Shown here in pieces: positions 15,794-16,084 of a DNA stretch of 16,723 nt (positions are counted from its first letter, which is position 1; every line of letters begins with the position of its first letter). Both the position numbers and the translations under genes were made by a program. The stretch is from a virus (taxonomy: Duplodnaviria; Heunggongvirae; Uroviricota; Caudoviricetes), in the IMG/VR virus record IMGVR_UViG_2660238346_000008, one strand, 5' to 3'. The notes below the pieces were generated by a model. The model saw only the letters and a program-made list of their open reading frames with translations, ran no database searches and was not told the DNA's origin.

Positions 15794-15865
15794 AGCCTCC
15801 TCCCGGGTCCAGAACGCACTCAGCCGGGTATGGTTCAGCCCATTTTTCCCGGCGTCTCATGCCGC

Positions 15866-15994
15866 AAATGTTAACTGCTGCCTGGTTAACATTTTCTGAA
15901 AAAGCCAGTTAACATTTTTTTCGCGCAACTAAATGAATAATAAAGATAAAAACCGCAAAAATGCCCGGACGGCCAGTTAACATGTTAACTGGCC
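15866..15994. promoter_or_regulatory. Array of GTTAACAT/ATGTTAAC motifs including a 24-bp perfect palindrome; candidate cosB-like terminase binding sites or operator
   Basis: CAGTTAACAT-type motif (one copy CTGGTTAACAT) in either orientation at 15868-15877, 15882-15892, 15905-15915, 15973-15983 and 15981-15991; 24-bp palindrome GGCCAGTTAACATGTTAACTGGCC at 15971-15994; 10-bp inverted pair AAATGTTAAC/GTTAACATTT at 15866-15894. Confidence 0.4.
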
Positions 15995-16066
15995 TGAAAC
16001 GGGAATTTTTTCTCTGCGTGAGAGGGGGCGCGGTGTCCAAAGCGATCGTTTTTTACGCCGGATGAT

Positions 16067-16076
16067 CCCCCCCCCC
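16067..16076. repeat. C10/G10 homopolymer tract just 3' of the HNH gene
   Basis: Ten consecutive C on the plus strand, 8 nt from the HNH stop codon, flanked by the GC-rich segment GAGGGGGCGCGGTG. Confidence 0.8.
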
Positions 16077-16084
16077 GGGTCGGG

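Follow-up and report, generated by a model that had tools for sequence, protein, structure and literature searches.

In bacteriophage lambda the cohesive ends are 5' extensions of 12 nt, and in SPP1 the sites pacL and pacR lie on either side of pacC. In HK97 the cohesive-end site (cos) has a 10-nt 3' overhang, the enzymes include the large terminase gp2 and the HNH protein gp74, and gp1 recognizes one site of 15 bp (+15..+29), the DNA being threaded through the gp1 tunnel (PMC9410871, PMC11331095). HNH genes are known to adjoin cos and terminase genes (PMC3592412), and the 10-nt cos string of a phage nearly identical to the element discussed here, the Escherichia coli phage Lys8385Vzw, is already known from a paper that reports only this string and describes no motif array, G-run or core (PMC7946995). 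Here we describe the 291-bp gap between the genes for an HNH endonuclease and a small terminase (TerS) in a 16,723-nt stretch of DNA from a virus of the class Caudoviricetes (IMG/VR record IMGVR_UViG_2660238346_000008), the whole of which is hereafter called the window. We consider it likely that this gap is the cos site of a long-tailed lambdoid prophage of the Shiga toxin (Stx) type, which would package its DNA with an HK97-like large terminase (TerL) and an HNH nuclease.

In its nicking half and its enzymes the site is an HK97-type cos, joined to a small terminase of the SPP1/SF6 type; it is not a lambda-type cos. As in HK97, it is situated between the HNH and TerS genes, the TerL proteins are homologous (23% identity to gp2 over 489 aa, E = 4e-11), relatives have 10-nt 3' cohesive ends, and a G-run together with an ATCA block is found ~43-46 nt upstream of the end. 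Unlike HK97, the window has a dyad at +34..+47 and three further motif copies (positions are counted from the predicted nick, +1 being 16022, downwards along the window coordinates), its TerS contains a helix-turn-helix (HTH) domain, and the downstream half of the site is dissimilar. No similarity was detected between the TerS of the window and gp1 of HK97 (E = 0.91), and since the two proteins come from different families, the tunnel mechanism of HK97 is not to be assumed for this system. Judged by its sequence, TerS is a Terminase_2 protein of the SPP1/SF6 type and is unrelated to both HK97 gp1 and lambda Nu1.

Homology of the gap to sites with mapped ends

An earlier, sequence-only reading of the window had placed cos within the 291-bp gap, which is borne out by gapless alignment to the mapped ends of Lys8385Vzw (MT225100) and of the Acinetobacter phage fEg-Aba01. 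Lys8385Vzw was sequenced from virions, its TerS is 95% identical to that of the window and it possesses the same dyad, motif array and core, so that the two sites represent essentially the same element. Its record ends with ...GGACACCGCCCCCCT and begins with CTCACGCAGAGAAAAAATTCCCG, and this opening is homologous to 16023|16022 of the window. For this phage PhageTerm called cos packaging with 3' cohesive ends, the cos string being given as CGCCCCCCCT (PMC7946995); its overhang (CGCCCCCCCT, or CCGCCCCCCT according to the deposited record) differs slightly from the CGCGCCCCCT of the window. The second phage, fEg-Aba01, is a distant relative (~51% identity of TerS over the N-terminal 50 residues), the linear record of which starts with CGCACGCACAAAAAAAATTCCC and ends with ...GGACACCGCCCCCCAT, the last 10 nt (CGCCCCCCAT) being annotated as "3' cohesive end"; these 10-nt 3' ends are backed by PhageTerm and by a heat/slow-cool restriction test (PMC7354433). 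A third record, that of the Burkholderia phage Bcep176, has its boundary exactly 10 nt ahead of the homologous CTCACGCGCAG and of the aligned nick.

Because the ends of these three records align gaplessly with the window, we predict that a 10-nt cohesive end is produced here by a minus-strand nick between 16023 and 16022 and a plus-strand nick between 16032 and 16033 (Table 1). The predicted cut falls in a GC-rich block between the palindrome and the C10 run, 35 bp from the latter and outside it. Among close relatives the cohesive end exists in three variants, CGCGCCCCCT, CGCCCCCCGT and CGCCCCCCCT.

Most of the related records are derived from prophages, and their ends are therefore uninformative. 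Among the 94 close phage records only that of Lys8385Vzw was opened at cos, the record of phi330 being opened inside the TerS gene. None of the IMG/VR matches listed is situated at the first base of its contig, the nearest one (L139) starting 4 nt away, and they thus provide no independent mapping of the ends; a literature search for further mapped ends of this cos family retrieved none, only an unrelated paper on a Serratia phage having surfaced. The published coordinates of the Lys8385Vzw cos ("base pairs 50,977-50,953") are impossible for a record of 50,953 bp (PMC7946995), and the final ten bases of that record read CCGCCCCCCT, as opposed to the published CGCCCCCCCT.

Table 1. Coordinates of the predicted cos elements and of the neighbouring genes in the window.
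Feature	Coordinates	Strand	Description
Predicted 10-nt 3' cohesive end	16023..16032	-	5'-CGCGCCCCCT-3' on the gene strand
Conserved core at the inner side of the left genome end	16001..16022 (+1..+22)	-	CTCACGCAGAGAAAAAATTCCC, includes an A-tract
Palindrome	15971..15994	strandless	Two GTTAAC hexamers 8 bp apart: 15984-15989 (+34..+39) and 15976-15981 (+42..+47)
GTTAACAT copies	15868-15875, 15885-15892, 15908-15915, 15976-15983, 15982-15989	-, +, +, +, - (in this order)	
GTTAACAT copies C, B, A	C 15908-15915, B 15885-15892, A 15868-15875 (span 15868..15915)		GTTAAC cores at +110, +133 and +148
AT-rich spacer	15916..15970	strandless	GC 30-43%; two T5 tracts about one helical turn apart
G10 run (C10 on the + strand)	16067..16076	-	-54..-45 from the nick; conserved upstream element
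HNH endonuclease	16085..16450	-	Pfam HNH, 30.3 bits (cut-off 21.4); PHROG 589
Small terminase (TerS)	15230..15793	-	Pfam PF03592 Terminase_2, 36 bits (cut-off 26.1), E = 1.3e-8
Large terminase (TerL)	13572..15233	-	Pfam TerL_ATPase and TerL_nuclease; comes after the TerS gene
Protease-capsid fusion	11571-13508	-	Pfam; prohead protease and major capsid protein in a single open reading frame of 645 aa
Portal	8612-11359	-	Pfam Phage_portal; open reading frame of 915 aa
DUF3950 protein, RHH-like	16492-16692	+	66 aa; PHROG 949 (function unknown); divergent from the HNH gene

The GTTAAC dyad and the helix-turn-helix domain of TerS

The features on which the sequence-only reading had relied were all recovered. 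Five copies of GTTAACAT in both orientations are present in the 16.7-kb window, all of them inside 15868-15989, where 0.39 would be expected by chance in the whole window and none of 200 shuffles contained five. The 24-bp perfect palindrome reads GGCCAGTTAACATGTTAACTGGCC; by our own arithmetic ~0.001 palindromes of this length are expected by chance in 16.7 kb. Its inner 18 bp (CAGTTAACATGTTAACTG) are invariant among 57 close variants and its outer arms vary, so that the perfection over 24 bp is peculiar to the copy in the window. No intrinsic terminator was found in or around the gap and no Rfam match in the gap region at E <= 1, hence the palindrome is neither a terminator nor a known RNA. 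The AT-rich stretch between the motif clusters and the GC-rich block proximal to the HNH gene are also as reported, with 30-33% GC at 15880-15959 and 60-65% at 16000-16099.

The proposal that the motifs are recognition sites of the terminase gains support from comparison with relatives, namely from the co-occurrence of motif and HTH domain, from codon choice and from the invariance of the motif columns. Most likely the small terminase lands on the GTTAAC motifs, and the dyad is the primary candidate for a cosB-like binding site of TerS. The Terminase_2 HTH domain spans only residues 2-57 at the N-terminus of the protein, and the C-terminal part is common to relatives that lack the HTH. A hexamer of the GTWAA type starting at +33..+59, mostly at +33..+50, was found in 90/90 distinct loci with an HTH-type TerS and in 0/7 HTH-less loci with the same core (both among the matches listed). 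In these seven distinct IMG/VR loci (L119, L120, L129, L183, L191, L210, L219) the C-terminal 50 residues of TerS are shared with those of the window (53% identity, E = 3e-5), a short basic Gly/Arg-rich arm without any Pfam match replaces the HTH at the N-terminus, and some of the loci carry other repeats (e.g. AATCAGCAAATGG twice). This natural domain swap argues that the motif goes with the HTH domain.

Only 106 bp separate the HNH and TerS genes in the Salmonella phage FSL SP-016, in which the dyad positions read GTAAAC ATG TTAAC and TerS begins with the codons ATG TTA ACA; nearly all Enterobacterales relatives are alike in this respect. The position of the dyad is unchanged in FSL SP-016 and throughout the compact relatives, in which the TerS start ATG TTA AC lies partly within it. 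Since in most relatives the second hexamer supplies the opening codons of TerS and the first hexamer is located between the Shine-Dalgarno sequence and the ATG, GTTAAC might be kept for the sake of translation, to provide the ribosome-binding spacer, the start codon and the N-terminal codons, instead of serving as DNA to be bound by a protein. We regard this as very improbable, because in the loci where the gene starts 66-230 nt from the nick (those of the window, of Proteus and of a further lineage, and two of the Pantoea type) the motif still lies at +33..+50 and is non-coding, because the Leu codon changes from TTA to CTN once the gene start has moved, and because TTA is retained even in the loci of GC-rich Burkholderia phages. 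In the N-terminal Leu-Thr the Leu codon is TTA in 74 of the 75 distinct compact loci, including those of the GC-rich Burkholderia phages, and CTN in 8 of the 9 loci with a start more than 70 nt from the nick (in both cases among the matches listed), as well as in the Proteus locus and in the window, whose TerS gene begins with GTG CTG ACA at +230.

The lineages in which the region was expanded independently (Proteus, a group whose gene starts at ~+155 and both loci of the Pantoea type) keep a GTTAA-type hexamer or the dyad at +33..+50 in non-coding DNA, and several of them have gained copies; fEg-Aba01 carries AAGTTAAA three times. Among 57 distinct close variants of the window, 0/38 motif columns vary, compared with 55/291 columns of the gap (hypergeometric P = 1.9e-4, a value that overstates independence, as the variants are related). 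On account of the co-occurrence with the HTH domain and of the constraint at the level of DNA, we infer that GTTAAC is a DNA signal read by the HTH domain of TerS.

A wider comparison was made with 19 diverse prophages, which were collected by scanning a single genome per species with a TerS alignment (TerS 37-49% identical to that of the window) and reside in Atlantibacter, Kluyvera, Phytobacter, Kosakonia, Enterobacter, Serratia, Citrobacter, Rouxiella, Erwinia, Pantoea, Proteus and Buttiauxella. All 19 keep the dyad, and no homologue of DUF3950 was found by tblastn in the 2.5-kb flanks of any of these loci. The suggestion, raised previously, that the motifs are operators of a regulator such as the RHH-like DUF3950 protein, whose gene adjoins the HNH gene, is therefore not supported, and it is hardly credible that they serve either as such operators or as promoter elements, the more so as the presence of the motif follows the N-terminal domain of TerS. 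With regard to promoters, copies B and C do form a weak sigma-70-like match on the + strand (TTAACA-18-TAACAT), but it scores only 9/12, points away from every gene and is one of 2 such matches found, against 0.7 expected from shuffled sequences; we judge it to be due to chance.

The N-terminal HTH of TerS belongs to the same Pfam family as that of the SPP1/SF6 protein G1P, which recognizes several short repeated boxes, as TerS would here; the DNA-binding domains 2cmp, 4zc3 and 3zqp, of the SF6/SPP1 type, are weakly matched by TerS. A copy of GTAAACAT upstream of the cut in many Enterobacterales relatives recalls pacL and pacR around pacC. Packaging by SPP1 and SF6 is of the headful type, in contrast to the sequence-specific cut with cohesive ends that homologous sites indicate for the window. 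The additional upstream copy in the relatives lies at -34..-27, the cut being flanked by motifs in consequence; the upstream copy of the window is degenerate (GTAAAAAA at 16049-16056, with GTAAAA at 16056-16051).

The resemblance to the cosN-cosB region of lambda, proposed from the sequence alone, holds in part. The logic of the layout is the same: on the side that is packaged first, the nicking site is followed by repeats, which in lambda are the sites of the small terminase and here are candidates for such sites, and by an AT-rich segment, the gene of the small terminase coming next; five motifs lie between the nick and the TerS gene of the window, and the comparative data would tie them to the HTH domain. 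What does not hold is the identity of the parts: the ends are by homology of the HK97 type (3', 10 nt), the proteins are not of the Nu1/A type, an HNH partner is present, and no IHF consensus was found. A lambda-like IHF bend was considered and found to be unsupported, WATCAANNNNTTR with <=1 mismatch being absent from 15794-16084.

Expansion of the region between the dyad and the TerS gene

The lineage of the window has ~180 extra bp between the dyad and the TerS gene, a stretch that compact relatives do not have and in which the AT-rich spacer and the motif copies A-C are located. Lys8385Vzw, which is packaging-proficient, carries the same array, and an independent expanded lineage also bears an extra copy of TGTTTAACAT. 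We regard copies A-C as candidate auxiliary sites of TerS. The three copies are intact in the 57 distinct close variants, while the neighbouring spacer, the most variable part of the expansion, varies at 12/55 columns, and other independently expanded lineages bear extra copies of the same motif; both observations speak against the alternative that only the dyad at +34..+47 is functional and that a duplication or insertion, which shifted the TerS start 180 bp downstream, left the three extra GTTAACAT copies and the spacer behind as a neutral relic. We consider this alternative unlikely, even though compact relatives package on the dyad alone, without the expansion, and though the 12 nt ATGTTAACTGGC occur twice in the same orientation, at +40 and +108, which a duplication would predict. 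Moreover, the stretch from the array to the TerS start is itself nearly invariant (7/122 columns vary), and under this alternative it may be recent spread, not selection, that explains the invariance of the motifs.

On the gene strand ATGTTAAC opens three mini-ORFs (short open reading frames), at 15983-15909 (24 codons), 15915-15886 (9 codons) and 15892-15857 (11 codons). The first two stop at a TAA within the next motif copy and the third at a TGA just past copy A, and none of them is preceded by a Shine-Dalgarno sequence. Probably they are what is left of terminase start regions that were duplicated.

The conserved core and the upstream G-run

The core and its surroundings, with a G-run ~45 nt upstream and CTCACGCRCAGAAAA just downstream, recur in more than 140 loci of Enterobacterales, Acinetobacter and Burkholderia phages. 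The layout common to them comprises the G-run, GGACAC or a variant thereof, a C-rich 10-mer, the nick, and then CTCACGCRCAGAAAA(A/T)(A/T)T(C/T)CC. The string CTCACGCRCAGAAAAWWTYCC was found in at least 120 IMG/VR contigs, in 17 of the 19 diverse prophages (and in a looser form in the other two) and in Burkholderia phages, with a near variant in fEg-Aba01.

The C10 run that had been noted near the HNH end of the gap is present there (Table 1). Taken by itself it is unremarkable, as 22 of 200 shuffles contain such a run, and its meaning therefore rests on conservation among relatives: a run of at least 5 G ending at -47..-43 was found in 112/122 distinct upstream sequences among the matches listed, and its length in close relatives ranges from 5 to 11, mostly 7-8. 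The right end of HK97 (NC_002167) contains G9+ATCAAA ~43 nt before the terminus, which resembles the G-run of this family, and the upstream 70 nt of HK97 are locally similar to those of the window, fEg-Aba01 or Rouxiella (0/2000 shuffles reach the score in these comparisons). The downstream 70 nt of HK97, in which the HK97 terminase site was sought, reveal no similarity to the cos family of the window. A search of two papers on HK97 packaging retrieved no passage on the G-run at the HK97 end. We speculate that the G-run could play a cosQ-like role, in termination, or could serve to position the nuclease.

In prophages of the PPompW type (LC567826.1, 2875-4333) the element ISEc20 of the IS110 family is inserted in the C/G run, at the equivalent of 16068-16071 of the window. 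The expected HNH and lysis genes are absent from these prophages, and the sequence past ISEc20 is unrelated to the window.

These comparisons can be accommodated in a modular view of the family, which we put forward tentatively, as a possibility somewhat short of even. The family might be composed of a nicking half (G-run, GGACAC, overhang and CTCACGCRCAGAAAA) and an exchangeable recognition half that matches the N-terminal module of TerS. The nicking half would travel with TerL and HNH, from HK97 to the phages of Enterobacterales, Acinetobacter and Burkholderia, and the recognition half would be a GTTAAC dyad where TerS has the HTH domain and other repeats where it has the short basic arm. 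In compact phages the dyad would double as the start codon, and in the Stx-type lineage it would have been detached from the gene and the motif multiplied to five. If this is true, a modular cos could tune the specificity of packaging or the competition among the up to eight prophages with this site that reside together in one E. coli genome.

Proposed mechanism of packaging

We propose that on concatemeric DNA TerS recognizes the GTTAAC-NN-GTTAAC dyad, 34-47 bp inside the left end, by means of its N-terminal HTH domains, and that in the lineage of the window it probably also recognizes the additional GTTAACAT copies A-C (+110 to +153). The binding of TerS would place TerL and HNH on the core GGACAC/CGCGCCCCCT/CTCACGCAGAGAAAAAATTCCC, where the strands would be nicked 10 nt apart to give 3' cohesive ends reading 5'-CGCGCCCCCT-3', and packaging would head towards the terminase and head genes, i.e. 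towards lower window coordinates. The G-run 45-54 nt upstream of the nick would belong to the conserved nicking half that is common with HK97. The alignments demonstrate, at the level of sequence, homology to sites with mapped ends; the direction of packaging and the role of HNH are taken by analogy from HK97 (PMC9410871, PMC11331095) and lambda, and would be expected to hold here as well.

Several points weigh against this reading of the locus. The published cos string (CGCCCCCCCT) and coordinates of Lys8385Vzw mismatch the deposited record slightly, which is likely to reflect a one-base homopolymer difference or a typing error. The cut in the window was placed from the ends of relatives, and the element itself may be a defective prophage. 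Binding of the motifs by TerS in this family is deduced from comparison, and in compact relatives the motif is partly coding (Met-Leu-Thr), so that its association with the HTH-type TerS is partly built in. The HTH-less set is small, with 7 distinct loci and three kinds of N-terminus, and the compared loci are phylogenetically related, so that the counts given above do not represent independent events. Copies A-C could be duplication relics that are tolerated and not used, and the function ascribed to the G-run is speculative.

Distribution and significance

The gap and its flanks are 93-98% identical to those of ~94 deposited phages, nearly all of them long-tailed Stx1- or Stx2-converting phages or their relatives (e.g. 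BP-4795, 2851, 1717 and YYZ-2008). Of 5426 complete E. coli genomes, 1282 contain the region, and a single genome has up to 8 copies of it. If the assignment is correct, the site is the packaging signal of many Shiga-toxin-converting phages. The exact position of the cut and the likely motifs could be used to open phage genomes correctly in databases, and knowledge of the site could help to single out the defective prophages or islands that are liable to be packaged by an induced Stx phage. In our literature search we came across no account of the motif array, the G-run, the conserved core or the link to the HTH domain, and studies of the structure or biochemistry of a small terminase with an SPP1-type HTH in a cos/HNH system were likewise not retrieved. 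The element is nevertheless of an ordinary kind, which is well resolved here, and it does not reveal a new kind of system.

Flanking genes

The genes that flank the gap are as the sequence-only reading described them, and the order on the minus strand is HNH - gap - TerS - TerL (Table 1). The stop codon of the HNH gene lies 63-65 nt upstream of the predicted nick, and the HNH protein is 69% identical to the cos-adjacent HNH of Salmonella phage FSL SP-016. For 16 of the 19 diverse prophages, tblastn detected an HNH gene immediately upstream of the core. By analogy with gp74 of HK97, HNH is presumed to be a helper in cos cleavage. TerS is a member of PHROG 641/51 (terminase small subunit) and shares 48% identity with TerS of FSL SP-016, the N-terminus being best conserved.

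Further from the gap, the portal domain encompasses residues 54-382 of the 915-aa product, which leaves a long C-terminal extension. A 12-bp palindrome (AATCACATGATT) lies inside the coding sequence of the DUF3950 protein, at 16546-16557.

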